Positions 2,942 through 62,981 of a stretch of DNA of 64,000 nucleotides are shown piece by piece; within the stretch, counting starts at the first letter, position 1, and every line of letters starts with the position of its first letter. Under the pieces are notes generated by a model that was not told where the DNA came from, did no database searches, and saw only the letters and a list, made by a program, of their open reading frames with translations. Source of the stretch: a candidate division WOR-1 bacterium RIFCSPLOWO2_02_FULL_46_20. GTDB lineage: Bacteria > Margulisbacteria > WOR-1 > O2-12-FULL-45-9. The position numbers and the translations under genes are program-made. The stretch lies in NCBI GenBank assembly GCA_001771365.1, contig METP01000033.1, positions 11,325 through 75,324 of the forward strand. Reading direction: 5' to 3'.

Positions 2942-5683
2942 TTAATTTAACAATTGATCAAGCATCTCGAGCGCTTCTTGCCTGGTCAACAGCTTCAGCT
3001 CGGTGCGCTTGAGCATCAATTCACGCACAAATTTATGCAGCAGCTCATGATCTTTAATTACCAGATTATTAAAATCTTGTAGCAATGCCTGTCTTAGGCC
3101 GCTTAAGTCGTCCCAATGTTTTTCGAGAGTTTTGTAGTGGCTGGCATATTTCTCGATAGTTACCACATACTGATAGGTCTCAAAGTCCATGCCGCGAATC
3201 TTTTCGTAATTTATTTTCAGGTTGCCGTTGCTGTAAGCAGCCAGCCCCTTATCAAGCAAAAGCTTAAAATCCTCCGGGGAAAGCTTTTGTTTTTTGATTA
3301 TTTTGCTGGCCACGATTGAGTCTACTGCCAAAGTGGCCGCTTCGAGAGTGGTCAGCGGCGAGCCTTTATATAATTTATAACCAGCCGCCTCCGCGGTACC
3401 GATTATCTCCTCCTTGGCAGGATCACCAATAAACTCAGAGCAGGCTTTATACAAAGAAAAATTGGCATTCGCCTCTACACATTCATCCAACTTGTCGAAA
3501 GGCGCGGAGAGAATTTGAATCAGGTCATCAATTAAGTTACGTTCTTCCATAATCAGACCACCGGAAGAGTGAATCAACTCAGGCGATAAAGTTTTATTCG
3601 CTTTCAAGGTTTGCAAAGCATATCTGCCAAAAGGATGGCTCCCCCACTTCATCTCGACAACCTCACCACTGGCATTAGTGACCGGATCATAATATTTATA
3701 GCCGCGCTCCGCCTCCGGCCTGTAAATATCGGCCAAGACCTCATTTGGCACAGCGCCCGGGTTCCCTTTTATATCCGTAAATAACCAGCGCTCACCCTCT
3801 TTTTTGATCACACCACCCATAGGAATAACCGTGGTTTGATAATAAAGGTTGGAGATGTAATTTTCCATGCTTTTATAAACATAGAATATTCCAGGTGTGG
3901 TAGGATATGCTAAATGTTCTTCGAAAACAGGCCGCTCTTTTTCGTCTCTCCCCAGCATCTGATAATATTTTTGCTTTGGCCCCCCCTTAACCCGCAGCTT
4001 GGCAAAAGGCTGGTCTTTGATATAAATCAACCAAATACCGGACAGGGGATAAACAGCAATTTTTACATCTTCGTCCCGCTTAAATTTCTCCTTAAGCCCA
4101 TCTAAATCTTCTTTAACATTTACCATCGTCGTTAGATAAGGGATCTGCTCCAGCATGTATTCCTCAATGTTTTTTGAATAATCATAAACAACTATCCGGG
4201 TATTTACGGGCAAAAGGGAATACAGAAAAAAACTGTCACGCGGCGTGACATGCAGGCAGCCGTGGCTTTTGTATAAATCCCCGAGTATTTCATCAAGCAG
4301 TAAACCAAAGTTGTACTCGTTCAAAGCCCTAACAGAATGAAATTCCAATGCTCCCGCCTCTTCGCTCAACGCCTGCTTGATGAGCTGACGCATTACTTTG
4401 CTTTCGCGTCCAGAAAAAACAGGATCATCCTCCGTCAGGAATAAGTTCTCAAAAGAGAGCTCCCGCACATACTTGGCTTGTGCCGGGGGTGTCGCCGGTT
4501 CAAAGAAAATTCGACTGGTCAGCCAGTTCTCAACAAGATTTTGCTGGTTGGCCAACGAAAGTACCCCCATCTTTATAAAATCTTCCCTTAATTTATTCCG
4601 TAAATCCTGCCAAAAGCTCCAGTCATCTTTTAATTTCTGATACCAATAAACTCGTTTTGCAATAATTGAATTATTTTCCCCCTGAGTTTGAAGCTTTCCC
4701 AGCGCTTTTTGCCGGGCCAATCCCCTGCGCGGCACGACAGCTCCTATCTGAGGCTCCAACGCTTGCAGTGTTTTATAATAAGTGAAGTTGGCATTATTTG
4801 ATATACATGAATCAAAATCATCCGATCCCGGTTGAGTTAAAATTTGGGTTAGATCTTTTACCAGTATGATTTGCTCAAAAAGCAGCCTGCCATCCGTATA
4901 GGCCATCATATTGCGGCCTGCTTTGGACAGCCACAAAATGTATTTGCCAAAGTCGTTACTCCCCCAGCGCGCCGCCGGCACCTTGTCATTATAATCATAA
5001 TAACTATATTTTTGTTTGTCGACCGGCTGTTCAAGGTCTTTAACGATATGCTGGGGCAAAACCAACCAATCACCCCCACTGTTATAAACCCATTTACCAT
5101 TTTTTTTCACCAGCCAGGCGCCGAAAGGGACAACGGTTGTTTCATAATACGCTTTGCTGATATAGTGGGCCGTCGGCCCAAGCACGGTATATTCTCCCGG
5201 ATAAGTCGGAACAGATAAAAAATTTTCATCAGGACGCAGCAATTTTTCTTTAAACCCGGCTTTAGTCCGCAACTTAGCGTAGGGTCGGCCATTAACATTA
5301 ATAAAAAGACGGTCAAGCGCGGGATAAACAACCACTTCAGTCGTGCTGTTTTTAAAAAGCTCGGCATGTATCTTAATATCTTTAGGGCCATTTGTAATAT
5401 TAAACAGAAACGGGACAGCCTTCTCATCGAACGTCAGTTTCACCTCTTCATATCCTTTACCCTGCCAAGAAATCCCTCTGGAAATAGTGCTGACTAACAG
5501 ATAAGTGTCCGAAGAGGTAAAGTGCAAGCCGCCGCGGGTATTATAAAGATCTCCTAAATAATCATCAAAATAGGCAGTCAGATTCTTTGAATTCAACAAA
5601 TTCAAACTCGGATAGTTTCCCTCCGCCAAACTAACGGAAATTAAACTTGGGAGCAGCCATATAATCATTAGACAGCGCTTCAC
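2942..5683 (-). CDS. Large secreted protein (913 aa) built from two homologous halves of about 400 aa each; the second half carries an SHGC L,D-transpeptidase-like motif
   Basis: The N-terminal signal peptide is MKRCLMIIWLLPSLISVSLA. Block-by-block similarity is visible between the halves: LGDLYNTRGGLHFTSSDTYLLVS versus LGDLYKSHGCLHVTPRDSFFLYS, RPYAKLRTKAGFKEK versus QPFAKLRVKGGPKQK, and KWGSNDFGKY versus KWGSHPFGRY. Confidence 0.6.
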   Translation of the reverse strand: MKRCLMIIWLLPSLISVSLAEGNYPSLNLLNSKNLTAYFDDYLGDLYNTRGGLHFTSSDTYLLVSTISRGISWQGKGYEEVKLTFDEKAVPFLFNITNGPKDIKIHAELFKNSTTEVVVYPALDRLFINVNGRPYAKLRTKAGFKEKLLRPDENFLSVPTYPGEYTVLGPTAHYISKAYYETTVVPFGAWLVKKNGKWVYNSGGDWLVLPQHIVKDLEQPVDKQKYSYYDYNDKVPAARWGSNDFGKYILWLSKAGRNMMAYTDGRLLFEQIILVKDLTQILTQPGSDDFDSCISNNANFTYYKTLQALEPQIGAVVPRRGLARQKALGKLQTQGENNSIIAKRVYWYQKLKDDWSFWQDLRNKLREDFIKMGVLSLANQQNLVENWLTSRIFFEPATPPAQAKYVRELSFENLFLTEDDPVFSGRESKVMRQLIKQALSEEAGALEFHSVRALNEYNFGLLLDEILGDLYKSHGCLHVTPRDSFFLYSLLPVNTRIVVYDYSKNIEEYMLEQIPYLTTMVNVKEDLDGLKEKFKRDEDVKIAVYPLSGIWLIYIKDQPFAKLRVKGGPKQKYYQMLGRDEKERPVFEEHLAYPTTPGIFYVYKSMENYISNLYYQTTVIPMGGVIKKEGERWLFTDIKGNPGAVPNEVLADIYRPEAERGYKYYDPVTNASGEVVEMKWGSHPFGRYALQTLKANKTLSPELIHSSGGLIMEERNLIDDLIQILSAPFDKLDECVEANANFSLYKACSEFIGDPAKEEIIGTAEAAGYKLYKGSPLTTLEAATLAVDSIVASKIIKKQKLSPEDFKLLLDKGLAAYSNGNLKINYEKIRGMDFETYQYVVTIEKYASHYKTLEKHWDDLSGLRQALLQDFNNLVIKDHELLHKFVRELMLKRTELKLLTRQEALEMLDQLLN

Positions 5684-18813: not shown

Positions 18814-18883
18814 TCTTCTGTGTCAAGCCAAAATAGGCGCACCTTGAACAATCTTTAAATTCGTGAGAAAATTCATTGTCCTT

Positions 18884-18968
18884 GCCGCTGTGGCGGAACT
18901 GGCAGACGCGCTTGACTCAAAATCAGGTTGGGTTTACCCCAGTGTCGGTTCAACTCCGACCAGCGGCA
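18884..18968 (+). tRNA. tRNA-Leu (anticodon CAA), type II with a long variable arm; CCA not encoded
   Basis: Manual fold: acceptor GCCGCTG/CAGCGGC, anticodon stem CTTGA/TCAGG with loop CTCAAAA, variable arm TTGGGTTTACCCCAGT, T arm GTCGG-TTCAACT-CCGAC. Confidence 0.8.
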
Positions 18969-18982
18969 TTAAAAAATCTCGT

Positions 18983-19066
18983 GCCCAGGTGGCGGAACTG
19001 GCAGACGCGCTAGCTTCAGGAGCTAGTGGGGTCAAACCCGTGGAGGTTCAAATCCTCTCCTGGGCA
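18983..19066 (+). tRNA. tRNA-Leu (anticodon CAG), type II; CCA not encoded
   Basis: Manual fold: acceptor GCCCAGG/CCTGGGC, anticodon stem CTAGC/GCTAG with loop TTCAGGA, T arm GGAGG-TTCAAAT-CCTCT. Confidence 0.8.
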
Positions 19067-19176
19067 TTTGAATTTTACCGCAAACCATTCCGTGCCGCGC
19101 TGGCCCTTCTGATTATACTCAACCCTCCCCAGCGGGCGCGTACCTTCAGCCCCCACTCAAATAATTGCGCCCGCTC
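19067..19176. repeat. Direct repeat copy 1 (92 nt identical to 23170-23261, about 110 nt similar), immediately 3' of tRNA-Leu(CAG); left boundary of the R-M island
   Basis: Read directly from the sequence. tttgaattttaccgcaaaccattccgtgccgcgctggcccttctgattatactcaaccctccccagcgggcgcgtaccttcagcccccactc is identical in both copies. The following roughly 20 nt are related. Confidence 0.9.
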
Positions 19177-19217
19177 TTACCGAGTGCATTTGCCTATTAC
19201 CAAAATTTGAGGTATTA

Positions 19218-20138
19218 TTGAAATTAGGTGCCAGCATACAAATGAACGCTGAACAAGAAAATAAAGAATCAACAACCCCTCTCGCTAAATATCTACAAAG
19301 CAATGATGTTTTGCTGATGTTATATCCCAAAGACGAAAATGGATATTTTTCAGAAAGCATACAACAAAAAGATGAGATCTCAATCTATAAACTCATCAAG
19401 GATAAAAAGGAATACAAAGAAACCCTACTGATTTTTCTAAACACAAGTGGCGGGAATGTTTATTCCGCAGTAAAAATAATGGATTCTTTGAGAACAAAAT
19501 ACAAAAAGATTACAATCGCTATTCCGCAAGAAGCAAAAAGCTCCGGAACGATGATGTGCTGTGGTGCTAACAAACTCATTCTGAGCCCGATCTCAGAATT
19601 AGGGCCACTTGATAAACCGATGGTGCATCCTGACAAAGAAACGGCCAGGATATCCGCACTAGATATTGTTAAATCCATAGATGGGATGTTAGATACAGCA
19701 GAGGAAAGACAAAAGATGTTGGCAAGAGGGTTTAATGAGGAATTCGGGGTGCCAATCGAAAAAAGCCTTGTTCTTGCCAGCGAATCGACTTCAAAGCTTA
19801 TTTCTCCGATGCTATGCAGGGAAGATGTTAAATTTTATAATCAAGCGAAGCGCTTACTCGCGATAGCAGAAAAATATGGCACTGAATTATTAATAAACTA
19901 TATGCTCAAATATATTGACAAAGACAAGCTAAGGGAAAAAATCGCCTCAATGATAATTAGACGACTAGTGTGGCTATATCCTGATCATGGGTTTGCTATC
20001 AGACGCAACGAATTAAAAGAGTGGTTTTTTACTATCGAGGATTCAGAAAATATGGAATGTTGGGATGAATTGTGGAAAGAATTTGAAAAGAGCATTGAAA
20101 ATGGTGGCCGCAAATTGATCAAATTTATGGGCGCATAA
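19218..20138 (+). CDS. Clp/crotonase-fold serine peptidase-like protein (SDH / S49-like), island cargo
   Basis: LIFLNTSGGNVYSAVKIMDSLRTKYKKITIAIPQEAKSSGTMMCCGANKLIL parallels the ClpP INSPGG…A.SMGA pattern, with candidate Ser in KSSGT and His in MVHPD. A TTG start sits behind a GAGG site, with an alternative ATG at 19242. The gene is AT-rich. Confidence 0.45.
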   Translation: MKLGASIQMNAEQENKESTTPLAKYLQSNDVLLMLYPKDENGYFSESIQQKDEISIYKLIKDKKEYKETLLIFLNTSGGNVYSAVKIMDSLRTKYKKITIAIPQEAKSSGTMMCCGANKLILSPISELGPLDKPMVHPDKETARISALDIVKSIDGMLDTAEERQKMLARGFNEEFGVPIEKSLVLASESTSKLISPMLCREDVKFYNQAKRLLAIAEKYGTELLINYMLKYIDKDKLREKIASMIIRRLVWLYPDHGFAIRRNELKEWFFTIEDSENMECWDELWKEFEKSIENGGRKLIKFMGA

Positions 20139-20140
20139 TC

Positions 20141-20359
20141 ATGCACAGAACATTTATGTCAAATTTTGATACGGACGAAAAAGGCCCCAATAAACCGGCG
20201 ATTGCGCCCGGGAACGCCGAATCACCACCTATTAGTGTGACAGAGAAATTAGTACGGGAAGAAATTAAAAAACTTAGCGAAAACTCAGAAGAATTAAAAA
20301 GGCTTAAAGAGCAGATGGCTAAAAAGACAAAGCATGAAGAATCTAGTGGGCAAAAGTAG
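20141..20359 (+). CDS. Hypothetical small hydrophilic protein (72 aa) coupled to the peptidase-like gene
   Basis: Its start lies 3 nt after the upstream stop. The product is charged and Lys/Glu-rich (…EEIKKLSENSEELKRLKEQMAKKTKHEE) with no recognisable family. Confidence 0.35.
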   Translation: MHRTFMSNFDTDEKGPNKPAIAPGNAESPPISVTEKLVREEIKKLSENSEELKRLKEQMAKKTKHEESSGQK

Positions 20360-20380
20360 CGCCTCTAAATCTCAAGCTGA

Positions 20381-21946
20381 TTAGCAAATAGTTAATTGAG
20401 TTTCTTTGCCAGACCATTTTAAGTCGATTGATTTCAAAAGATGATTAGCCCTAACATTGCCCAGCTCTTTTGGTTCTATTTTATGCAAGCCCCCACCATA
20501 AGTTCTGCATTCACTTTTTAGCTCTCTATGAACCAGCTTATTAAGTTCGTTAAATATGATTTCTTGTTTTTTCAAATCATCAACAATATATTTATTTAGC
20601 TGCTCTTTAGGGTAAAGCATTAAATATGTATTTGTTGCAATTGCCTTGCTTTTATTCCAAACAAATCGAAATGCCTCTTTATTAGCGGAACTCCTCCCCA
20701 TATAAGTGCATAAATATAGTGCTGGTTGTCGTTTTTCTTGTTTATACCATGGATGCCTTCTACTCGGCATATATTTATTATTTATATTTTTGGCTTCTCC
20801 GCTAATTAAATAATTGTAAAGCCCAGGACAATCTATTTTAATCGCATCCAGTGATTCATTGGTATTAATTATAAATAAGCGTTGTTTTAGAATAGGGTAT
20901 CCAGAATGATCGCCATTAACTATTTCACATTTTAAATAGCGAGGGCTGGGCAATAGTGGCGTGAGATAGGTAGGCCTAATGTTCAAGGAGGAAACCACAT
21001 CCTCTGTTAAAATGAAGTAATCATTATCTCCTGTTGCTATTCCCCGCCTTATGTCAAATATGTCTGACAATAGGATATCATTGTCCTTGCGCACAATGAA
21101 ACTAATATTATTAGAGAAGTGTGACCATTTTCTGGTTGGGCTCAGCTGATCCAAAGAAATTGTTTGAGTTTTATGGGGCACCATTAATGATCCACCGGAT
21201 GTAAACATAACTGATGTGTCTTTGTCAGGCTTTTTGTTCTGAAAAACAATAATGCAAGAAGACACAAGCGCATCTGCAAACTGTAGATCTTCCGGGTTAA
21301 ATCGATGAATGCGGATAAGCTTTACATTTTCAGTTAAATATTTCTTGAGCATTATGCCATAGTTGATATCCATAAAATCAGATGGCACCAACCATATGCT
21401 TATGCCATCAATATCAAGCCATTGATGGGCGCAATAAATAAAATAACAATATAAACTGGTCAATCCACTAACATTAAATCCCGTTATGCTCCTAATTATT
21501 TCTTTTAATTTATGCTTATGAGTTATATCTAAATGATGATGCCTAGAGTAAGGGGGATTTGTTATTAATAAATTATATCGTTCATTTTGTTTCGGCTGGG
21601 CTAATGTAAAATCTTGCAGTTTAACATCTAATCCATATCTACTCCAATTAGAAATAGCAATACCCGCATAACCCTTATCTATTTCAAAACCCTTTGCAGT
21701 ATTTATCTTCTTCACACCAAACGTCTTTAGTATTGCTGAAAAAAATGAGCCAGAGCCAATTGCCGGCTCAAGAAAATTAACTTTATTGCCATTTATTAGG
21801 CTGGAAGCATATATAGCGATCTCTTTTGCTAGAGACGGGGGGGTAGCATATTGGCCAAGGATATTTCGTTCTTTTAATGTTTTAAAAGAATCAATATCAT
21901 CTTGTTTTGTTAATCGGTCATTTTCGAGAAGTTCTATGGAGTTCAT
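20381..21946 (-). CDS. Gamma-class N6-adenine DNA methyltransferase (Eco57I / PstI-BsuBI-like type II MTase)
   Basis: Motif I (LEPAIGSGSF, AdoMet binding) precedes motif IV (LITNPPY). A long C-terminal target-recognition region follows. Confidence 0.8.
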   Translation of the reverse strand: MNSIELLENDRLTKQDDIDSFKTLKERNILGQYATPPSLAKEIAIYASSLINGNKVNFLEPAIGSGSFFSAILKTFGVKKINTAKGFEIDKGYAGIAISNWSRYGLDVKLQDFTLAQPKQNERYNLLITNPPYSRHHHLDITHKHKLKEIIRSITGFNVSGLTSLYCYFIYCAHQWLDIDGISIWLVPSDFMDINYGIMLKKYLTENVKLIRIHRFNPEDLQFADALVSSCIIVFQNKKPDKDTSVMFTSGGSLMVPHKTQTISLDQLSPTRKWSHFSNNISFIVRKDNDILLSDIFDIRRGIATGDNDYFILTEDVVSSLNIRPTYLTPLLPSPRYLKCEIVNGDHSGYPILKQRLFIINTNESLDAIKIDCPGLYNYLISGEAKNINNKYMPSRRHPWYKQEKRQPALYLCTYMGRSSANKEAFRFVWNKSKAIATNTYLMLYPKEQLNKYIVDDLKKQEIIFNELNKLVHRELKSECRTYGGGLHKIEPKELGNVRANHLLKSIDLKWSGKETQLTIC

Positions 21947-21947
21947 T

Positions 21948-22898
21948 TTATAACCCCAATTTAATCATATCGTCAATTCGATGCTCCCAGATCCAATCAA
22001 TTCCTTCAGCAGCTTCATATCCAAGATAACCGCTATCAAAGTACCCACACAGGAAAAGCATAAAATTAATCTTTGCCCCATAAGTATCTTTGAGTTGCCT
22101 TATTTTTGTGGCCTCCTCTTTTCGTCTTTTATTTGTATTTGTAAAATCGCCCGCAGATTTGGCCTCAATTAATATGGGGTATTGATTTGCCCCGGCCTTA
22201 TTAGGCATAATTACTACGTCAATTGGTATATTTACTTTGTGTTTATTTCCAACAGAAATATTTAATCTAAAGGTGAAAGTGCCTTTTTTCATGTTCTGCC
22301 AATCAGTAATTTCGGAGGGGGATAAATATTTATAGCCTAGTTTTTCCAAGTATTTTAAAATATTCATCAATTGACGTTGTTCTTGAGCATTCCGTATAAT
22401 CGGGTCCGCTACTGCTCCACACAATCTATCTGCGATAATTGTTGATGCTCTTTCGCACTCATGAGCATCCGGGGTTCGATCTTCTTCTAGCCAAGGAATA
22501 ATATCACTATCAATCAATTTACATATTATCGAGCATATTCTATTCAAGTATTCATCGAGGACTTTCCCCTTCATTTGAGGTGGCAATTTCCCCTCCTCCA
22601 TACTGAGTATAAGATGCTTAGCGATAGAAGTTAATCCTACTAAACGATCTCTTGCGATTGGGGGACAGGTTGACATGCGTAATGTTTGAATAATGGACGG
22701 GTGTTTTTTAAGAATAGCTGGGGTGAGCTTCTGCAGATTGCTTGTTAATTTAAATGTTTCCAGGACTGTATTTGATGTATCTTTCCTGGTTATCCTAAAT
22801 GTTTTAGGGGCAAATTTTATAAACCACTTATTATAATAATCTACCGATTCAGCAATGTCTTTTTTCCATAAGGCAGGTTTATTTGCGTTGATTGCCAT
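21948..22898 (-). CDS. Restriction endonuclease candidate (PD-(D/E)xK), partner of the MTase
   Basis: The C-terminal …PIDVVIMPNKAGANQYPILIEAKSAGD gives a D…(E)AK PD-ExK pattern. The stop abuts the MTase start (1-nt gap). The start was placed at MAINANKPALWKK (22898). The ORF tool extends to 23138 through a non-conserved Cys-rich stretch. Confidence 0.5.
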   Translation of the reverse strand: MAINANKPALWKKDIAESVDYYNKWFIKFAPKTFRITRKDTSNTVLETFKLTSNLQKLTPAILKKHPSIIQTLRMSTCPPIARDRLVGLTSIAKHLILSMEEGKLPPQMKGKVLDEYLNRICSIICKLIDSDIIPWLEEDRTPDAHECERASTIIADRLCGAVADPIIRNAQEQRQLMNILKYLEKLGYKYLSPSEITDWQNMKKGTFTFRLNISVGNKHKVNIPIDVVIMPNKAGANQYPILIEAKSAGDFTNTNKRRKEEATKIRQLKDTYGAKINFMLFLCGYFDSGYLGYEAAEGIDWIWEHRIDDMIKLGL

Positions 22899-23083
22899 GA
22901 TAATGGGGTTATTATACCATATACCAAAAGAAGAATAACAATGGCATATCAACCCACAAAAACACACTAGTGCCAGAATGTTTTTATTACAGTTTATCCT
23001 CAGAAGGATTCTCAAGAAGCGGTTTTTTCGACGTATGGGGGAGAAAAACCGCTTCTTCGACAAACCTACATTCTGTGCAAGTC

Positions 23084-23169
23084 TTTTTTCTTGCATCCAT
23101 GAATGGTGTTGGGTATAATCAATGAGATAGCCCGGCATTGAATGGTTTGAGAACCAGAGGGTCGAGGCA
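23084..23169 (+). promoter_or_regulatory. Near-consensus sigma70 promoter (TTGCAT-17-TATAAT, 23091-23119) plus a 40-nt leader gcccggcattgaatggtttgagaaccagagggtcgaggca; copy A of a duplicated module
   Basis: Read directly from the sequence. About 85 nt are shared with 30144-30228 (ttcttgca.cc.tgaat.g.gttgggtataat … gcccggc..tgaatggtttgagaaccagagggtcgaggca). Confidence 0.6.
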
Positions 23170-23280
23170 TTTGAATTTTACCGCAAACCATTCCGTGCCG
23201 CGCTGGCCCTTCTGATTATACTCAACCCTCCCCAGCGGGCGCGTACCTTCAGCCCCCACTCGCATAAATGGCGCCCGCTG
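23170..23280. repeat. Direct repeat copy 2 (right boundary of the R-M island)
   Basis: The first 92 nt are identical to copy 1. Both copies contain the stem ccagcgggcgcg … ggcgcccgct. Confidence 0.9.
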
Positions 23281-23558
23281 ACAAGTAAATCGACACGATT
23301 TATTTTTTTGCCCTTGACACTGCTGAATTCTCTGCCATATAATTCCACTTAGTGGTAAGGGGGAATTCGCTAAGATGGATCATCTATCTGTCTAAAAACC
23401 AGTCCCTCCACTTTTTAATAAGGTGCGGCCCGGATTTCTCTTCTTGACAGAGGCAAACTAAAATAGCATAATTTGTTTGTAAATGCTTCAAAGAGGGGAA
23501 CGGCGGAGTCAATCAGCCCATTTTGTGTCAGTATCGCAGATTTTCCGGGACGGTATAA

Positions 23559-24074
23559 ATGGTTAAAGACAAGATAGATCAAATACTTGAAAAGATCGAT
23601 TCGTTAGAAACCGGTCAGAAGTCATTAGTAGCCGGTCAGAAGTCATTAGAAACCGGTCAGAAGTCATTAGTAGCCGGTCAGAAGTCATTAGTAGCCGGTC
23701 AGAAGTCATTAGAAACCGGTCAGAAGTCATTGGAAACCGGTCAGAAGTCATTGGAAACCGGTCAGAAGTCATTAGTGGCCGGTCAGAAGTCATTAGAAAC
23801 CGGTCAGAAGTCATTAGTAGCCGGTCAGAATAAAAATTATGGTTTGATTCAAAAACAAGGCATCATGCTGGAACAGGTCGCTTCTGATGTAAAAGCAGTG
23901 GCGGAAGGACATGCGGCAATAAGGAATGAAATGCAAAGAGGATTTGAAGAAGTTAAAGAACAAATAAAATTCGTGGATGATAAATTGGGATTTGTAGCTA
24001 ATCAGCTTGGCGAAAAAATCGATCGCGTTGAGCAGAAACTGGACGAGCACGTCAAACTGCCAGCACATGTTTAG
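23559..24074 (+). CDS. Tandem-heptad-repeat protein (ETGQKSL / VAGQKSL, about 17 repeats) with a coiled-coil-like C-terminal domain
   Basis: Built from 21-bp DNA tandem repeats (23607-23830). Two upstream sigma70-like promoters lie at 23315-23343 (TTGACA…CATATAAT) and 23444-23471 (TTGACA-16-CATAAT). No signal peptide is present. Confidence 0.6.
   Translation: MVKDKIDQILEKIDSLETGQKSLVAGQKSLETGQKSLVAGQKSLVAGQKSLETGQKSLETGQKSLETGQKSLVAGQKSLETGQKSLVAGQNKNYGLIQKQGIMLEQVASDVKAVAEGHAAIRNEMQRGFEEVKEQIKFVDDKLGFVANQLGEKIDRVEQKLDEHVKLPAHV
23607..23830 (+). repeat. About 10.5 tandem copies of a 21-bp unit (gaaaccggtcagaagtcatta / gtagccggtcagaagtcatta) inside the CDS
   Basis: Read directly from the sequence. 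The repeat is in-frame, so each unit encodes one heptad. Confidence 0.9.
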
Positions 24075-24143
24075 GATAATTTTACCCCCCCATTCTAATC
24101 GCGGATTCTTCCTTAATCCTGCCAGTATTTTTGAGGCCTTACT

Positions 24144-24617
24144 GTGAAAAAAAGAATAAGGCCAAAGACCATGCCTGCAAATATTAAACCAAAATCTTTT
24201 CCCATCGTCGGTATCGGTGGTTCGGCTGGAGGGCTGGGGGCATTCGAGGCACTGCTTAAAAATATCTCGGCTAAACCGGGAATGGCGCTAGTCTTTATTA
24301 TGCATTTAACCCCGGGCCATAAAAATCTCCTGCCGGAACTGCTGACCAGGGTGACGAAAATGCCGGTCAGTGAAATACAAAGCGGCCTGATCCCCGAGAT
24401 CAACCATGTTTATGTCAAACCGCCCAACACCGACCTGGCTATCGACGGCAGGAAATTTTTACTTAGCACCAGGGAAAACGCCAGTATCAGACATCTGCCC
24501 ATAGATTATTTTTTCCGTTCCTTGGCGGCAGAGTGCGGCAATAGAGGTATCGGAGTTATTCTGTCCGGCACCGCCACCGACGGGACACTGGGAGCCGGGA
24601 CGATCAAGTCCGCCTGA
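24144..24617 (+). CDS. CheB-type methylesterase catalytic domain, C-terminally truncated, with no receiver domain (possible gene fragment)
   Basis: IVGIGGSAGGLGAFEALL, VFIMHLTPGH and GTATDG match the Ser-, His- and Asp-containing blocks of CheB_methylest. The final roughly 35 aa of the domain are missing, and the ORF terminates before the convergent GT4 gene. Confidence 0.5.
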   Translation: MKKRIRPKTMPANIKPKSFPIVGIGGSAGGLGAFEALLKNISAKPGMALVFIMHLTPGHKNLLPELLTRVTKMPVSEIQSGLIPEINHVYVKPPNTDLAIDGRKFLLSTRENASIRHLPIDYFFRSLAAECGNRGIGVILSGTATDGTLGAGTIKSA

Positions 24618-24656
24618 CTTCCGCACCCGCCTGAATAACTAAAGCGGTAATAAATA

Positions 24657-25886
24657 TTAACCTTGAATAATATCTTCGTTCGGATGATCCAGGGCGATCA
24701 GCAAAGCTAAATAATTCCTGAGCTTCCGGGTGATCAGGAATTTCTCCCGGACATGTTCCCGCCCATATTCTCCCATTTTTTTTGCCGCCTGGGGATTATT
24801 GATCAGATAACGGATTTGATAAGCGGTCCCCTCAATTGAATGGACAAGCAAGCCGGTGAAATTATGGATAATCTGCAAGGTGATCCCGCCGACCGCCGAT
24901 GCCACGACCGGCTTGGCTTTCCACAGCGCTTCGGTAACCGTCAGCCCGAATCCTTCCCGCAACGATTTCTGCACTATAACAGTTGACGCTCTTTGCAGGG
25001 CGTTAATCTCCAAATCCGCGTATGGCGGCAGCAGTAGAATGTGTATGTCAGGATCATTTTTAGCCGCTTCCTGCACCTGGTTCAGCACCTGCCCCCCTTC
25101 CGGATCATCGGTCGCTCCCCCGCCAGCCAGTACCAACTGGCAATCATTATGTCTCTTTACCAATTTGTAAGCTTCGATCACCCCGAGAGGGTCTTTAAGA
25201 TAATCAAACCGGGAAATTTGCGTGATGATCGGCCGCGACCGGTCAAGCTTATACTTGCGCGCGACCGTCTCAATCTCGGCAGCGGAAAGATCGCGGTTTT
25301 TTTCGGCTAACGGATCAATGGCCGGGTAGATAAAGTATTTTGGCGCGGCTAGCTTCCTGGCAAACCAGGGAGTGGAAAAGACCGAGGCGTCATATTTTTC
25401 AATATAGCCCTTGAGAAAATCCCAGACATCCGCTTGGGGATGGGAGGTGTCAATGTGGCACCGCCAGACCCATTTGGCTTTTGATCTCTCCTTGGCGGCA
25501 ATAAGACCCGCCGGCTGGGGGTCATGGACAATGACCACGTCCTCATCGAAGGACATTTCGGCAAGATTAGCTGCCGTCGTTTCCTGGAAAACCTTGAACA
25601 TTTCCGTGGAGATATCCGATTTAATCCCGTGCAGGGCGTTATGGAAAGTTTTGGTCACGCCAAAGAACGGTCCGCTCCCCTTGATCACGTCCCATTTGGT
25701 TTTAATGCCGAGCTCATTATAGAGCGGCACGACACGGGTCAGTATCTCCGCCACGCCGCCCCCCACCGCGGTTGAATTGACCATCCTGACGCGTTTACCG
25801 GCGGCTTTTTCCGCCAGCAGCATCAGTTCGTCAAAATTCTGCGGTCGGATGAAGCGAGAATATTCCGCTATCTTATTTTGAGCCAT
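24657..25886 (-). CDS. GT4-family retaining glycosyltransferase, TreT (trehalose glycosyltransferring synthase)-like
   Basis: The C-terminal EX7E motif REGFGLTVTEA is present. The N-terminal block VNSTAVGGGVAEIL…VIKGSGPFFGVTKTFHNALHG recalls TreT-type GT4 enzymes. The gene is the last in a trehalose operon. Confidence 0.55.
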   Translation of the reverse strand: MAQNKIAEYSRFIRPQNFDELMLLAEKAAGKRVRMVNSTAVGGGVAEILTRVVPLYNELGIKTKWDVIKGSGPFFGVTKTFHNALHGIKSDISTEMFKVFQETTAANLAEMSFDEDVVIVHDPQPAGLIAAKERSKAKWVWRCHIDTSHPQADVWDFLKGYIEKYDASVFSTPWFARKLAAPKYFIYPAIDPLAEKNRDLSAAEIETVARKYKLDRSRPIITQISRFDYLKDPLGVIEAYKLVKRHNDCQLVLAGGGATDDPEGGQVLNQVQEAAKNDPDIHILLLPPYADLEINALQRASTVIVQKSLREGFGLTVTEALWKAKPVVASAVGGITLQIIHNFTGLLVHSIEGTAYQIRYLINNPQAAKKMGEYGREHVREKFLITRKLRNYLALLIALDHPNEDIIQG

Positions 25887-26557
25887 TTAAATATCCTGCC
25901 GATCAAGCCATCTCTTTTCTTACGGACCAGAGCAATAATCCGGTCGCGGAGCTGGTCCATAGTGTAAATATAAGGGTCCAAAGCTTCGATCTTCTTTGCC
26001 AGAATTTCATCGCCGTAATTATCCTTGATCCAGTTTGAAAAGTCGTTGCTCCGTTTTGCCAGCCGCAGGCGCGCTTCAAAAAAGTGGAAAAAGAGGGAGC
26101 GCAGGCCGACTTTTTTCAACGCGGCGCAAAACTCATCATAATCCCAGGCCTCATACCTGGTCTTTAAAACGATACCGATCGCCCGGCAGAAATAAAAACC
26201 GCGCTTGGCCGGGACCGTCCCGCCAGCGGGATTCTGGTTTAAATAGCCGTCCAGTATCTCAACGATCTTGTCCCGTAGCGCCCCGAGTTCTGTATAGTCC
26301 TTGATATTAATATTGGCCAGACGCTCCGCCAGGACATGCTCGCCAATCTCTTCTTCCACCCAGTGGGCAAAATCGTTTGTGTAAACCCCGGGCGCGAACT
26401 GGTGTTCGCGGAAAGCGTGGTGGACGTGGTAAAAGATCGATGACTCATCTATCCCCTTCAATATTTCCCTGAATTCTTTGAGATCGCCAGCCTTCTGGCT
26501 GGTGATCTCCACCAGTTGGGAAGAGGTATAAAACTCAAAAGCTGTTTTGGCAGTCAT
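25868..26557 (-). CDS. Conserved hypothetical protein (229 aa) co-operonic with the trehalose genes
   Basis: The ORF overlaps the GT4 gene start by 19 nt. I recognise no family for it. Confidence 0.45.
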   Translation of the reverse strand: MTAKTAFEFYTSSQLVEITSQKAGDLKEFREILKGIDESSIFYHVHHAFREHQFAPGVYTNDFAHWVEEEIGEHVLAERLANINIKDYTELGALRDKIVEILDGYLNQNPAGGTVPAKRGFYFCRAIGIVLKTRYEAWDYDEFCAALKKVGLRSLFFHFFEARLRLAKRSNDFSNWIKDNYGDEILAKKIEALDPYIYTMDQLRDRIIALVRKKRDGLIGRIFKWLKIR

Positions 26558-26576
26558 TATATAATAATAAAAATAG

Positions 26577-26960
26577 TTATTCCTTGACCTTTGTTTTCAG
26601 TCTCTCAACTTCCTGCTTGAGTTCTTTAATTTGTTTGATCAAAAAGGGAATGTTCGGCTTATCGGTTTTATCTTGTGGAAAAGTTCCCGCGACGATCTCT
26701 TCAAAATTGGTGAACCGGTCCTGGTCAGAATCGATATCAGCGATCTTCGCAAAGTTATGTCCCGCGTTTTTGAAATCAAGGGCAAATGGGCCTTGCTCTT
26801 TCATTTTGCCTTTGACAGGATGGCAGGTGGAGCAGGCAGCTAGTTTTGTCCCTGCGGCATCCGGATAATTCTTTTTGAAGGATTCAAGATATTTAGGCGT
26901 AGCAAAAAGAGCGGAACTTGAAAAAATAGAAATCAGACTCACTAATAAAAGAAAACGCAT
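26577..26960 (-). CDS. Small secreted protein with a single CxxCH heme-c-like motif and a DxDxD Ca-binding-like (dockerin/EF-hand-like) segment
   Basis: The signal peptide is MRFLLLVSLISIFSSSALFA. The motifs are AACSTCHP and DIDSDQDRFTNFEEI. The C-terminus is a coiled coil (KQIKELKQEVERLKTKVKE). Confidence 0.45.
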   Translation of the reverse strand: MRFLLLVSLISIFSSSALFATPKYLESFKKNYPDAAGTKLAACSTCHPVKGKMKEQGPFALDFKNAGHNFAKIADIDSDQDRFTNFEEIVAGTFPQDKTDKPNIPFLIKQIKELKQEVERLKTKVKE

Positions 26961-26971
26961 AACTCCCCCCT

Positions 26972-27688
26972 TTATTTATCAACTAAACATAAAAGAAAAC
27001 GGTAAACTGCCGCGACATTAGCCAAATGGCCGTCAACCAGGCTACCTCCGCCGAACCCCACCTTAATAGAAAAACCCACCCCCTTTAACGCCCTAAAGGC
27101 GTCTTCATCAGTCTTATCGTCGCCGATATAAACAGGAGCATATTTTTGCAGCTTCAGGTTTTTAATAAGCCAGCGTACCGCCTTCCCTTTATCCCAATCA
27201 GCCGGCGGGCGGACATCAAATATTTTTTTGCCGGTCGTTATCTTAATGGCACGCCGCCACGGTTTAAGCGCCAGCTTAAAATCCCTTTTGAAAGCATGGA
27301 TAGCTGACATGGCAAGTGAGCGATAATGGACGCTAAGGGTCAAGCCTTTATCTTCAATCAATAAGCCCCGGTAATGGAGTTTGTTCTTAAGTTCGGCTTT
27401 GATCTTTTTTAGCAGCGGAAGTGTTTTTTTTGCGGCCGGATGCACCCAATGCTTCCCGCTGGCCAATATCTCAAACCCGTGGTTGCCAACATAAATAATA
27501 TTACGGATACCAGCCAGTCTTTTGACAACCGATAACTTACGGCCGGAGATGATCGCCAATTTAATTTCGGGATGGCGGGCTAACCGTTTGAGCAGTTTTT
27601 TTCTGGGCGCGGACAGGACTGCCCGTTGCGGATTTTCGACGATAGGCGTCAGCGTTCCGTCATAATCGAGCATCAGGAATAACTTCAT
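26972..27688 (-). CDS. otsB: Trehalose-6-phosphate phosphatase (HAD-IIB)
   Basis: Carries LMLDYDGTLTP (HAD motif I) and IGDDKTDEDAFRAL (T6PP motif). The start was placed at MKLFLM, which immediately abuts the otsA stop. Confidence 0.8.
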   Translation of the reverse strand: MKLFLMLDYDGTLTPIVENPQRAVLSAPRKKLLKRLARHPEIKLAIISGRKLSVVKRLAGIRNIIYVGNHGFEILASGKHWVHPAAKKTLPLLKKIKAELKNKLHYRGLLIEDKGLTLSVHYRSLAMSAIHAFKRDFKLALKPWRRAIKITTGKKIFDVRPPADWDKGKAVRWLIKNLKLQKYAPVYIGDDKTDEDAFRALKGVGFSIKVGFGGGSLVDGHLANVAAVYRFLLCLVDK

Positions 27689-29919
27689 GTTTTTTGCAGT
27701 TCGGTCAGGTTGGTGATAATACTTGCCGCCCATTTATAAACATTGTTGTCGGCTACGACCTTACGCATGCTCTCCATGCGCCGCTTTTGTTCTTCCGGCG
27801 GCATGACGCAGGCAGTCTTGAGGCTGTCGGCAAACTCTTCGATGGCATAAGGGTTGATCTGCAGCGCTTCGGTCAGCTCCCTGGCCGCGCCGGTAAATTT
27901 ACTTAAGAGCAGGACTCCCGCCAGGTCATTCTTTGCCGCCACGTATTCTTTAGCCACCAGGTTCATACCATCGTGCAGCGAACTGACGACGCAAATGTCG
28001 CCGAGCCGGTAATAAGGCTTGATCTCCTCCGGAGTAAAGTACTCTTTTAAGTAGATTATCGGTCGCCAGGCGCCGTTGGTATATTTGCTGTTCTTTTTTT
28101 CTATCAACCGCTCGATCTCGTCCGACAGGTCGTGGTAGCGTTTGATCTTGGTCCGGCTGGGAGCGGCCAACTGCAAAAAGACGAACTTGTTCAGGTATTC
28201 CGGATATTTTCCCAGGAAACGGTCGACGGCCAGGATTCTTTCAACAATACCTTTCGTATAATCAATCCGGTCAACGCCGACGGCCACGATTTTTCCGGCC
28301 AGATCGTATTTCTCTCTTATCCGGTCGATCTCCCTGGCTTCATTGGCTGTGACCGAATAGCGTGATACCCCCTCGATGCTGATCGGGAATGGCCGGACCA
28401 GCGTTTCTTTGCCTGACCTGACAACGCTGTTCTTCTCGTTATCAACACGGCATTCCAGCAGGCGGTTGGCGGTTTCCAGAAAATTATTACAATGATATTG
28501 CACATGGAAGCCGACCAGGTCGCACCCCAGCATCCCATCCAGTATCTCTTTTTGATAAGGACAGACGGAAAAGACCTCCGGGTTCGGCCAGGGGATATGC
28601 CAGAAGAGCGCGATCGTGACATCCGGCCGCTTGTCCTTGATCATCTTGCCCAGCAGCGTGAAATGATAATCCTGGATAAAAACAAAGGCATTTTTGGCCG
28701 GCAGCTCCTCAATAACGCTGTCAGCAAACTTTTGGTTTACCTGTTTATACATCTGCCAGTCGGCTTCCCGGAAGATCGGGCGGGTGAAAGTAATATGACT
28801 AAGCGGCCAGAGGCCTTCGTTGGCAAAACCGTAATAGAAGCCGCCTTCCTCTTCGGGCGTCAGCCAAATTCTTTTTAGGATGTAGCGATTGTCTTCGGGC
28901 GGTACCCCGAGCTTGTCCTTGGAATTCACGAATTGCCGATCGGCGTTGCCGCTCCCCTGGGCAATCCAGGTTCCGCCGCAGGCCCGCATGATCGGATTGA
29001 GTGCCGTCACCACGCCGCTGGCCGGACGGACATATTTTGCCGCCCCCGTCCGCTCATCAAGCACGTGCATGAACGGCTCCCGGTTGGAAACAATAACCAT
29101 AGAGCTGTCGCCGAGTTTGGCGTTGACCAGGTCCTTTAATTTACTTTCCGTCCAGATCTCGTCCTTTTTCAATCTGATCGTGGCCGCTTCGGCCATGCTC
29201 TTTTTGGCCACCCTCAGGCTAAGGGCAACCTGCTCAACCTCACTGGCCAGCTCACCTAATTCACTCTTTTGGCTGATCTCATGCATCTTGCTGGTTTCAC
29301 CCTTCTGGAAATGTTTGAACCAAACCGTGAGCTGCCGCATCGGCACCAGAAACATCTGGCGGAGTACCAGCGCGGCAATGAGCAACAGCGAAATAACCAG
29401 CAAGACCAGCGTGATGATCATGTTCCGCCAAAAGTCCATTGACCGGGCAAAAACATAAGAGGTGTCATAGATCATCTCGACCATGCCAAGTATTTTCCCC
29501 TGGTCATCAAGCACCGGTATAATGTGGCTATAGACATAGATTTTTTTGAATTTCCCCAACAGGTCACTGGCTTCCTTGTTTTTAAGGGCATCTCGATAAT
29601 ATTCGCGCTCTTCGTCTTTCCAATCCCTGAACCTCTCCGTGATCGCTATTAATTTCCCTTCCCGATCGTAAAGCGCGCAGCCCTGGATATTCTTTTTATT
29701 CTGGAATCTCTTAACCAGACGTTGAGCCCCGGCTTGGTCATTATTGGCAAGAACATAACCGGCCGACAACTCCAGGCTTTCCGCGACAGTTTCGGCTTTC
29801 CGCTTGAGATCATCCATTAGTTTATCTTCTTCATATCTGACCTGGATAACGCCAAAAATGATGATAACCAGCGAAACGATGATGATAAGCGGCAAAGCAA
29901 AGACAATTGTTTTTTTCAT
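27685..29919 (-). CDS. otsA: Trehalose-6-phosphate synthase (GT20 OtsA domain) fused to an N-terminal TM–extracytoplasmic sensor–TM–HAMP module
   Basis: The GT20 core runs from about aa 269 (VIVSNREP…, FANEGLWPLSH, FIQDYHFTLLG, FWHIPWP). The N-terminus has TM1 at about aa 7-27, a loop of about 140 aa, TM2 (MIITLVLLVISLLLIAALVL) and a HAMP-like segment PMRQLTVWFKHFQKGE…SELGELASEVEQVALSL. Confidence 0.8.
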   Translation of the reverse strand: MKKTIVFALPLIIIVSLVIIIFGVIQVRYEEDKLMDDLKRKAETVAESLELSAGYVLANNDQAGAQRLVKRFQNKKNIQGCALYDREGKLIAITERFRDWKDEEREYYRDALKNKEASDLLGKFKKIYVYSHIIPVLDDQGKILGMVEMIYDTSYVFARSMDFWRNMIITLVLLVISLLLIAALVLRQMFLVPMRQLTVWFKHFQKGETSKMHEISQKSELGELASEVEQVALSLRVAKKSMAEAATIRLKKDEIWTESKLKDLVNAKLGDSSMVIVSNREPFMHVLDERTGAAKYVRPASGVVTALNPIMRACGGTWIAQGSGNADRQFVNSKDKLGVPPEDNRYILKRIWLTPEEEGGFYYGFANEGLWPLSHITFTRPIFREADWQMYKQVNQKFADSVIEELPAKNAFVFIQDYHFTLLGKMIKDKRPDVTIALFWHIPWPNPEVFSVCPYQKEILDGMLGCDLVGFHVQYHCNNFLETANRLLECRVDNEKNSVVRSGKETLVRPFPISIEGVSRYSVTANEAREIDRIREKYDLAGKIVAVGVDRIDYTKGIVERILAVDRFLGKYPEYLNKFVFLQLAAPSRTKIKRYHDLSDEIERLIEKKNSKYTNGAWRPIIYLKEYFTPEEIKPYYRLGDICVVSSLHDGMNLVAKEYVAAKNDLAGVLLLSKFTGAARELTEALQINPYAIEEFADSLKTACVMPPEEQKRRMESMRKVVADNNVYKWAASIITNLTELQKT

Positions 29920-30143
29920 TGATCGGCCTTCATAGGTCTTCTTCGGGCTCCCTCAATATCCGTGAGTAGCAATAGATGTTTAGCGCAAGTATGCAGGTTA
30001 GCGAAACGATCATAAATATCCAGCCGTATATGTTCATCGGAAACAACCTCCAAGGATTTGGATAATCCTTGAATCCGTTCAAATTTTATCACTTTATCAT
30101 GTGACTGTCGAATATTATTCTCAAGAATAGCCGATGTAAATCA

Positions 30144-30228
30144 TTCTTCTTGCACCCGTGAATTGAGTTGGGTATAATAAAAGTGATGGCCCGGCCCTGA
30201 ATGGTTTGAGAACCAGAGGGTCGAGGCA
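30144..30228 (+). promoter_or_regulatory. Copy B of the promoter–leader module (TTGCAC-17-TATAAT at 30150-30178 plus a 40-nt leader), oriented antisense to the 3' end of the Ca-ATPase gene
   Basis: About 85 nt are shared with 23084-23169. The sequence diverges after gtcgaggca. Confidence 0.55.
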
Positions 30229-56382: not shown

Positions 56383-57518
56383 GGCAGGCAGGTAAATTTC
56401 CCTTTCCCCAGCAACTTGTTATTCTCACGATTGATGATGGTAAATATATAGATGCCCGAACTGACCGGTGAGCCCTGCTCCGTCGTAAGATTCCAGCTAA
56501 CCTTATTAACTCCGGCCGAACCACCCTCGTCACGCCTGGCAATTTGGTATCTCTTAACGATTCGGCCTGAAACGTCAATGAGTACCATCTCAATATCCAT
56601 ATCACGATTTAAGGTATATTGGAAGGTAACAGAACTGGTGGTCTTAAGATGCAAGGGGCTCGGATAAGTTATCGGCACACCCAGGAGTCTGCCTTCTCCA
56701 CCGGCCACGGTTACGGTACAAGTTTCTATTGTTGTCCCAAAAATATTAGAAGCCTTAAAAACCAGATCGTGCTTTCCGTCGGCCAGGGTCTCATCTTCCA
56801 CGTTAAAATCAAAAGTAAAATTCACCGCGGTTGGTACCCCGGAGGGCCCCGAAGACTTCGTAATGTGAGAGGCGCTGATTTTGAAGGTCTTGGCGTCAGC
56901 TTTCCCTTCATTTAAAACCATGGAAATGTGGCTTAGGCTCAAACCAAAAACGGAAGTCAACCTGGCATTAACCTCAGGCTGATCGGAGATAATAAACTCT
57001 TGTCCTTTGGCCACGAGTTCTCGCTGGTAAATGCGTTTGCCAAAACGTATTTCCTCAAACCCCGGGGCCAGGCCTTCAACTAGAGTGGGTTTTTCCGGCG
57101 GCTCCGCCACGCCGGCTCCCGCGGCCAGAACAAGGCTCTGGTCAACTATGTCATATCCTTGTCCGGTTAAGGTTACTTCTACCGGATTGGCTCCGTAACC
57201 ATCCGCGGCTTTAACGATCGCCACATAATATTTGCCTGGAGCGACTTCCAGGCGCCAGTCTTCAAAAGCATTGAGCATATAATTGTTGTCACGGCCCGAG
57301 AGCCCGGAAACCCCCACAAGCTCATCGGCATAGCCCTGAGATGGATCGGTTGCCGGATCTATTTTATAGAAAACAACCCGACGGCCATCGGTTCCCACCC
57401 CATCCGGATCGGAAACCGCGCCCGCGATCCAATACATGCCAAGGTAAAGCTGCTGCGTTTGAACAGCTACGCCGCAAACCAACAACAGGCCCAACAATAT
57501 TAGCGCTATTCTCTTCAT
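56379..57518 (-). CDS. Secreted protein with a C-terminal FlgD-Ig / T9SS-CTD-like beta-sandwich domain
   Basis: A signal peptide is present. The C-terminus …VTFQYTLNRDMDIEMVLIDVSGRIVKRYQI…NKVSWNLTTEQGSPVSSGIYIFTIINRENNKLLGKGKF resembles the Por-secretion C-terminal sorting domain. Confidence 0.45.
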   Translation of the reverse strand: MKRIALILLGLLLVCGVAVQTQQLYLGMYWIAGAVSDPDGVGTDGRRVVFYKIDPATDPSQGYADELVGVSGLSGRDNNYMLNAFEDWRLEVAPGKYYVAIVKAADGYGANPVEVTLTGQGYDIVDQSLVLAAGAGVAEPPEKPTLVEGLAPGFEEIRFGKRIYQRELVAKGQEFIISDQPEVNARLTSVFGLSLSHISMVLNEGKADAKTFKISASHITKSSGPSGVPTAVNFTFDFNVEDETLADGKHDLVFKASNIFGTTIETCTVTVAGGEGRLLGVPITYPSPLHLKTTSSVTFQYTLNRDMDIEMVLIDVSGRIVKRYQIARRDEGGSAGVNKVSWNLTTEQGSPVSSGIYIFTIINRENNKLLGKGKFTCLP

Positions 57519-62957: not shown

Positions 62958-62981
62958 TACAGATACCTCCTCAATTTATAA

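Follow-up and report, generated by a model that had tools for sequence, protein, structure and literature searches.

Conserved end modules, most likely of horizontally acquired cassettes, meet at the edge of a restriction–modification island behind tRNA-Leu genes in a WOR-1 bacterium

The 4.1-kb island and its direct repeat

Is the block at 23126-23285, at the edge of a restriction–modification (R-M) island in a candidate division WOR-1 bacterium, a gene for a structured RNA or a DNA element that marks where the island ends? A sequence-only reading of the 64-kb window (the whole stretch of 64,000 nucleotides analysed here) had proposed an undescribed structured ncRNA of ~150 nt, with a recombination or att site as its fallback. 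Our analysis indicates that this region is probably a DNA boundary or recombination module and not an ncRNA gene. It is most likely the junction of two conserved end modules that bracket horizontally acquired cassettes. The features on which this rests are as follows.

18883-18969, + strand: tRNA-Leu(CAA), first of the native tRNA pair, downstream of accA (ARAGORN and Rfam)
18982-19067 (end 19066/7), + strand: tRNA-Leu(CAG), second of the pair (ARAGORN and Rfam)
19063-19175, + strand: repeat copy 1, a left-end-type module (sequence comparison)
19176-23011, both strands: island cargo, four ORFs, no recombinase
19218-20138, + strand: SDH/ClpP-like protease, island cargo
20141-20359, + strand: 72-aa ORF, island cargo
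20381-21946, - strand: Eco57I-type N6 MTase, island cargo
21948-22901, - strand: XamI-family REase, island cargo, R-M partner of the Eco57I-type MTase
23012-23169, + strand: right-end module A (nhmmer matches and alignment across contigs)
23108-23226: composite imperfect palindrome formed where module A meets repeat copy 2, its arms facing each other across a 34-nt centre
23166-23280, + strand: repeat copy 2, a left-end-type module with the same parts as copy 1
30124-30228, + strand: right-end module B, 83% identical to module A and ending in GGTCGAGGCA

The upstream gene order at the locus is accD-accA followed by the two tRNA-Leu genes, and copy 1 of the repeat indeed lies directly after this pair, as had been noticed from the letters alone. 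The nearest GTDB genomes are labelled Margulisiibacteriota (AccA identity 79%), and the accA-tRNA-tRNA order is kept in the relatives L005-L010. In these relatives a rho/murein-ligase block follows the accA-tRNA pair directly; the same block is found at 41.4 kb in the window, and the island is missing from L005, L006, L009 and L010. The island occupies 4.1 kb between the repeat copies and has a GC content of ~36%, compared with ~47% in its flanks. Because of this difference, and because the accA-tRNA pair of the relatives runs straight into the rho/murein-ligase block, we conclude that the R-M island is foreign and horizontally acquired. Exact-protein look-ups of AccA and TreT yielded ~15 contigs of the same species, all with the island and none with an empty-site allele. 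These conspecific contigs are 99.97-100% identical, with GCA_001772355.1 matching the window at 99.98%.

No recombinase, integrase or transposase domain was found by Pfam in island or window ORFs of at least 180 aa, nor in the islands of other genomes described below; several large ORFs of the window are without any Pfam match. The lack of a recombinase domain in the island is as expected of a decayed or non-autonomous unit resembling a cis-mobilizable element (CIME), and not of an autonomous island.

Direct repeats flank the island, which begins immediately behind tRNA-Leu(CAG), as expected of an island inserted at a tRNA gene. The two copies are identical over 96 nt (19063-19158 and 23166-23261), and the similarity continues imperfectly to 19175 and 23279, with 4 mismatches and 1 indel, for a total of ~113 nt. 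Two 30-mers taken from the repeat each occur exactly twice in the window, where shuffled sequences predict 0. The first 4 nt of copy 1 are the GGCA at 19063-19066 that ends tRNA-Leu(CAG), and this GGCA is the apparent recombination point. It is also all that the repeat shares with the tRNA, so that the repeat does not behave as a classical att repeat built on a tRNA core.

Two stems and the question of an RNA gene

Each copy of the repeat is a left-end module, composed of a 14-nt T-rich segment, an inverted partial arm, a CCCTCC tract and a GC hairpin. Following the GGCA, copy 1 has its 14-nt segment at 19067-19080, the inverted arm CAAACCATTC...TATACTCAAC at 19081-19123, the tract CCCTCCCC and the GC hairpin at 19131-19139 / 19167-19175; in copy 2 the 14-nt segment lies at 23170-23183, the inverted arm at 23184-23226 and the hairpin at 23233-23242 / 23271-23280. 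Read as its reverse complement, the inverted arm of the left end runs TATAAT...GCGCGG...GAATGGTTTG. Directly upstream of copy 2, right-end module A comprises a hairpin (23014-23057), a promoter-like TTGCAT-17-TATAAT (23091-23119), an arm GTTGGG...GAATGGTTTG (23108-23149) and a 20-nt end ...GGTCGAGGCA (23150-23169).

This arrangement accounts for both stems on which the RNA proposal was built. Stem 1 is the pairing of GAATGGTTTG at 23140-23149 with CAAACCATTC; the complementarity was called correctly, and the second arm had been placed one nucleotide too far downstream (23185-23194 instead of 23184-23193). It sits inside a longer imperfect inverted repeat, of which one stretch pairs 23129-23149 with 23184-23204 (21 nt, 86%) and another pairs 23108-23121 with 23213-23226 (14 nt, 93%). 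Stem 1 is thus the arm of a right end pairing with the inverted arm of the adjoining left end. Stem 2 pairs CAGCGGGCGC at 23233-23242 with GCGCCCGCTG at 23271-23280 over 10 bp in copy 2, and 19131-19139 with 19167-19175 over 9 bp in copy 1. The claim that a GC stem is preserved in both copies is therefore borne out, and the hairpin still forms in each even though their last 17-18 nt differ at five positions. If the region is, as seems most likely, a junction of end modules, the two stems are explained as the dyad symmetry of a putative recombination site and the conserved hairpin of the left end, respectively.

The folding analysis that had been suggested recovered both stems: RNAfold gave a z score of -2.9 and -52.7 kcal/mol for the + strand, a stable fold in keeping with an RNA. 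However, the - strand folded at least as well (z -3.1, -66.3 kcal/mol), which is expected of a DNA palindrome and not of a strand-specific RNA. At the gathering threshold Rfam matched only tRNAs and RNase P and assigned no family to the region, and an E-value search returned only sub-threshold matches to generic miRNA hairpins, of which mir-15, for example, scored 25 bits where its cutoff is 57. In the closest genomes (L005-L010), tRNA-Leu(CAG) is not followed by the repeat block.

The poor conservation of stem 1 points the same way. At the junction at 6210-5946 of metagenome contig L089, stem 1 is absent because the left end there has no inverted arm, and opposite GAATGGTTTG only a 6-nt C[AG]AAC[CT] remains in L085, L086 (11761) and L089 (11429; junction L089b). 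In four junctions on four different contigs, GAATGGTTTG and this motif are separated by exactly 34 nt; a short motif at fixed spacing is the pattern expected of protein-binding sites. The GC hairpin is the sole consensus structure of the left ends and is conserved in six copies from four genomes, which would suit an RNA. Its pairs are invariant at 8 of 11 positions, and a single double change, at the terminal pair in one sequence, is not significant (86 of 500 shuffles were equal to it); an A-to-T change in L088 is uncompensated. With so many invariant pairs there is no usable covariation, which speaks neither for nor against an RNA role.

As for transcription, the promoter A of the sequence-only reading consists of TTGCAT at 23091-23096, a 17-nt spacer and TATAAT at 23114-23119. 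The -10 box is perfect and kept in nearly all right-end copies, though a consensus scan misses this promoter because its -35 box matches at only 3 of 6 positions; the left-end copies carry TATAAT without a -35. No intrinsic terminator was called by scans in either repeat copy, where the GC hairpin has a loop of ~27 nt and no T-run directly following, and none was called between tRNA-Leu(CAG) and copy 1, so copy 1 is predicted to be co-transcribed with this tRNA. Such co-transcription and the perfect -10 box would favour an RNA product. The proposal of a ~150-nt ncRNA nevertheless finds no backing in an Rfam family, a strand-specific fold, a conserved stem 1 or significant covariation, and the two halves of the putative RNA are separate modules that are also found apart.

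End modules at cassettes of other genomes

The right-end module came to light in the comparison with L005, in which positions 23079-23171 of the window recur, as they do at 30137-30225 within the window itself. A pattern scan and an nhmmer profile then revealed further copies in metagenome contigs L085-L089, such that right ends are now known from a second site in the window and from L005, L085, L086/L087, L088 and L089. Module A is 85-91% identical to L086 5391-5551 and L089 6049-6210. At 69-73% identity, accA DNA is less conserved between genomes than the modules are. In every copy of the right end the similarity stops exactly after the GGCA of ...GGTCGAGGCA. The GC hairpin and CCCTCC tract also characterise left-end modules in L086, L088 and L089, the last with two copies.

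These modules enclose quite different cargo. Between the modules of L086/L087 lie an AAA_13 protein, an AlwI REase and two D12 MTases. L089 harbours two adjoining units with SNF2-type helicases that match DrmD, BrxH, ZorD and DpdE models, together with DUF2779, a radical-SAM-like protein and a ParB_N-like protein. L088 carries the same SNF2 gene as L089; the two SNF2 cassettes share 90.5% identity over 3.9 kb, from the left-end hairpin onwards. Ahead of this hairpin lie tRNA-Leu(CAG) and an inverted arm in L088 and the right end of another cassette in L089. The fallback of a recombination or att site is thus supported by homologous blocks that, in other genomes, terminate cassettes of defence genes. 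The same observation agrees with the outcome that had been named as telling against an RNA, namely a block found only beside R-M insertions. The XamI proteins most similar to that of the island (76% and 73% amino-acid identity, in L100 and L101) belong to R-M pairs without modules, and hence the modules do not form part of the R-M unit.

In both L086 and L089, the ends of an island are full inverted copies of each other. Their variable spacers are exact reverse complements, CCCCTTTTTCATCAAACC / GGTTTGATGAAAAAGGGG in L086 and CCCTCTGGCTCTCAAACC / GGTTTGAGAGCCAGAGGG in L089, and since the spacers match within an island and differ between islands, the two ends of one unit are coupled. The left arm in the window is short of its terminal 20 nt. 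No target-site duplication was seen at L086 (flanks AATAATA / ATTTTTT) or at L089.

Two small islands show that the breakpoints are precise. That of L005 lies after tRNA-Leu(GAG) and that of L085 after tRNA-Leu(CAG); both extend from the GGCA of the tRNA to the GGCA of the module, beyond which native flank resumes, and both have a right end only. The window and L006 provide empty sites for the L005 island, and the direct repeat at L085 is ~18 nt long.

Module B stops 3 nt short of the stop codon of a P-type ATPase gene that runs convergently to it, and it may close a second unit, at 23170-30228, as its right end. The mobile status of that unit is doubtful because it contains housekeeping-like trehalose genes.

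Searches of plasmids and phages by blastn and a scan of viral contigs gave no match to the module family, nor did we come across a description of it; the family thus seems undescribed. With four strict matches in the 64-kb window, two of which are the repeat itself, and one in a 1.67-Mb contig, a high-copy REP or MITE is ruled out. A tRNA-like or tRNA-pseudogene identity of the 45-nt module end was likewise rejected, as ARAGORN reported nothing and global alignment with the tRNA 3' end scored -2.

How the junction may have formed

The modules are best read as att-like or terminal-repeat ends of integrase-less cassettes, and the direct repeat as the product of either tandem accretion or a long target duplication. 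We tentatively favour a specific model of site-specific tandem accretion, to which we give somewhat less than an even chance. Where a right end abuts a left end, the two form an imperfect palindrome with a 34-nt centre. In this model the palindrome would be the site at which a recombinase encoded elsewhere binds and crosses over, with crossover at or near the GGCA, which lies 3 nt from the dyad centre. A circular form, [left end - cargo - right end], bearing the XamI R-M genes would recombine at the GGCA of tRNA-Leu(CAG), beside which the left end of a related unit would already lie. The product would read tRNA, left end 1 - R-M cargo - right end, left end 2 and so on, amounting to a tandem accretion of integrase-less, CIME-like elements.

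Several observations sit less easily with an att site. Classical tRNA att cores are far longer than the GGCA that repeat and tRNA have in common, the 34-nt gap between the arms is too wide for a tyrosine-recombinase core, and the inverted ends of L086 and L089 suit a transposon better than attL and attR. The ~15 contigs include no conspecific empty-site allele, and the searches of ORFs described above yielded neither integrase nor transposase. A recent duplication would equally explain why the two copies match perfectly over 96 nt and then diverge.

Tandems are documented to arise by CIME-type decay and accretion at att sites (Pavlovic 2004, reviewed in PMC5704250). Like CIMEs, our island adjoins the 3' end of a tRNA gene, has direct repeats, an atypical GC content and no recombination genes, and adjoins a unit bounded by the same kind of site, with an internal junction that resembles a hybrid att site. 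Unlike CIMEs, its identity to the tRNA is limited to GGCA, with the long repeat placed beyond the tRNA instead of within it, the sites are long imperfect palindromes without a known cognate integrase, and the ends are inverted in other genomes. Taken together, the systems closest in kind are tandem islands of the CIME type, located at tRNA genes, and the R-M units between repeats described by Furuta et al. On present evidence the locus represents a variant of familiar island/att biology and no new principle. For annotation, the result guards against listing a palindromic recombination junction among new ncRNAs. It also suggests that an uncultured WOR-1/Margulisbacteria-like lineage moves R-M and helicase-type defence cassettes between a few conserved end modules located at tRNA-Leu genes, with no mobility genes linked to them. 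Should a recombinase be found, the modules could serve as markers for defence cassettes and hotspots, and they might belong to a new site-specific recombination system.

The ends could instead be those of a non-autonomous transposon, with the ~90-nt TGCC...GGCA arms acting as terminal inverted repeats (TIRs) for a transposase whose gene lies elsewhere. On this view, the direct repeat of the window is a truncated left TIR with a subterminal hairpin, doubled by two units lying side by side. We consider this reading rather unlikely. The full inverted ends and matched spacers of L086 and L089 fit it well, as do the 5'-TG...CA-3' termini, the internal direct repeat GAATGGTGTTGGG / GAATGGTTTGAGA of the arm and the outward-facing promoter-like sequence. 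Outward-facing promoters are found at many IS ends. However, no transposase was found, target-site duplication is lacking at L086 and L089, the left arm of the window is without its terminal 20 nt, the small islands of L005 and L085 have a right end only, and copy number is low, with one strict match in a 1.67-Mb contig. MIC231 of Bacillus cereus is an example of a mobile insertion cassette, a MITE-like non-autonomous transposon. The term mobile insertion cassettes is also used in PMC4337579. Our cassettes resemble such elements in having passenger genes between inverted terminal repeats, no transposase and matching ends. They differ in the absence of target-site duplication, in their very long (~90-nt) ends with subterminal hairpins, in their preference for tRNA-Leu ends and in having no known parental IS.

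A bolder view, which we regard as decidedly unlikely, is that of an undescribed cassette-exchange system of WOR-1/Margulisbacteria-like bacteria, in which integrase-less cassettes, mostly for defence, would be stacked and swapped at tRNA-Leu GGCA ends via a long palindromic site and an unlinked recombinase. With arms 34 nt apart and crossover near the dyad centre, such a system would be functionally integron-like and unrelated to attC/IntI; in its boldest version a promoter-driven junction transcript may even join the recombination reaction as RNA. As in integron attC arrays, cassettes that often carry defence genes are separated by imperfect palindromes of ~60-140 nt. Unlike integrons, no intI was found, the motifs resembling GTTRRRY and RYYYAAC are in the wrong order, the apparent crossover lies near the palindrome centre and not at R', and the cassettes have their own promoters and occur in both orientations. 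An attC identity of the junction itself was rejected, with GTTGGGT at 23108 and ACTCAAC at 23220 in the wrong order and no integrase.

R-M insertions with long target duplications, and R-M units flanked by long inverted repeats, have been described (Nobusato 2000; Furuta, Abe and Kobayashi 2010, PMC2853133). On this precedent, a target of ~96-113 bp would have been duplicated by an R-M insertion just behind the tRNA, with no dedicated recombinase. The island shares with those units a small insert (R and M genes together, <20 kb), the absence of mobility genes and a direct repeat of ~100 bp (>30 bp in PMC2853133) that is perfect over 96 nt, and related cassettes in our set are flanked by long inverted repeats. 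Against this, the insert ends in a conserved right-end module seen at cassette ends of other genomes, and the repeat is a family module of arm and GC hairpin, not anonymous native DNA; no genome with an empty site and a single native repeat copy was found. Because the repeat and the right end are modules common to unrelated cargo in several genomes, the repeat is not simply a duplicated native target. The five differences in the last 17-18 nt, with the same hairpin retained, are not what a simple duplication predicts, and related XamI R-M pairs elsewhere are without modules. We hold this explanation to be improbable.

It is very unlikely that the right end is a regulatory insulator, in which the hairpin at 23014-23057 would stop transcription, the promoter would restart it, and ordinary homologous recombination would spread the repeats. 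In L086 and L089 the module does lie right after one stop codon and upstream of the next co-directional gene, and pairing of the hairpin is kept in L086 by one compensatory change, GCGG/CCGC to GCGA/TCGC. In the window, however, no + strand gene runs into the module, and copy B is directed at the 3' end of a gene that converges on it; left-end copies lack the -35, and the exact GGCA breakpoints, matched inverted ends and association with tRNA ends are left unexplained. Most improbable of all is an independent ~150-nt structured ncRNA, transcribed from TTGCAT-17-TATAAT or cut from the tRNA-Leu precursor and acting in trans or in cis, given the strand symmetry and modular make-up described above. 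In the tandem-accretion model, any transcript that leaves the right end and crosses the junction would arise as a by-product or help to express the gene downstream.

The tRNA-Leu locus and the interposed DNA

Variation around the tRNA-Leu(CAA)/(CAG) pair was seen in three relatives' genomes (L005, 10960-11143; L008, 11343-11624; L009, 10922-11418) and in the metagenome contig L085 (501-687), which carries a small island at tRNA-Leu(CAG). The orientation of the pair relative to accA is reversed in some relatives, and in L008 the pair is split or divergent. In L009 the 3' half of tRNA-Leu(CAG) is repeated as an additional 56-nt segment, ~135 nt 3' of the intact gene; this is a classical att-type footprint. 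The locus is a recurrent hotspot of rearrangement and integration.

We further compared window positions 19068-41400 with L005, L006, L009 and L010. In these relatives a rho/Mur-ligase/tRNA-Leu(GAG) block lies directly 3' of the accA-tRNA-Leu pair; the same block is found at 41.4-44.0 kb in the window, indicating that ~22 kb is interposed in this genome. Besides the R-M island, this DNA carries trehalose genes, a P-type ATPase and a permease, as well as an F-type ATP synthase operon. The greater part of it resembles housekeeping DNA, so that a rearrangement is involved in addition to the island insertion.

Island cargo and end modules

The XamI R-M pair of the island is accompanied by the following genes:

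19218-20359, + strand: serine protease of 306 aa, SDH/ClpP-like (its weak Pfam matches fall short of the SDH_protease cutoff), and an ORF of 72 aa

Neither was matched by the PADLOC defence models; together they could form an uncharacterised accessory or defence module.

Within the right-end arm there is an internal direct repeat, GAATGGTGTTGGG (23101-23113) and GAATGGTTTGAGA (23140-23152), with a separation of 39 nt, and at the left end the motif CCAGCG(G)GC occurs three times: the arm holds one copy, and each side of the hairpin another. Both the direct repeat and this motif could be repeated protein-binding sites. Between the end of the second right-end module (30124-30228, + strand) and the stop codon of the convergent P-type ATPase gene lie 3 nt. 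The module points into this gene, so that its promoter-like sequence would direct antisense transcription there.

The repeat-protein gene and other genes of the window

Three features lie 3' of repeat copy 2:

23314-23343, + strand: sigma-70 promoter TTGACA-18-TATAAT (12/12 consensus match), shortly 3' of the repeat copy
23444-23472: second sigma-70 promoter match (11/12)
23559-24074, + strand: tandem-repeat ORF of ~11 tandem 21-nt units

The 21-nt units encode 7-aa repeats, GQKSL(V/E)(A/T), and the ORF weakly matches an antifreeze beta-roll family. Its length is 108, 171 and 185 aa across otherwise identical assemblies and contig ends fall inside it in several contigs, which shows that the repeat number is variable or badly assembled. 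The two predicted promoters probably drive this gene, and they are stronger candidates than the TTGCAT-17-TATAAT element (23091-23119) from which the sequence-only reading had started a non-coding transcript.

Two further sets of genes were noted in the window:

2942-5683, 57515-59728 and 61752-63986, - strand: large ORFs of 913, 737, 401 and 334 aa
1721-2128, + strand: gene for a bacterial class A RNase P RNA (242 bits)

The large ORFs had no Pfam match at E <= 1e-5. The RNase P RNA gene is unrelated to the repeat junction.
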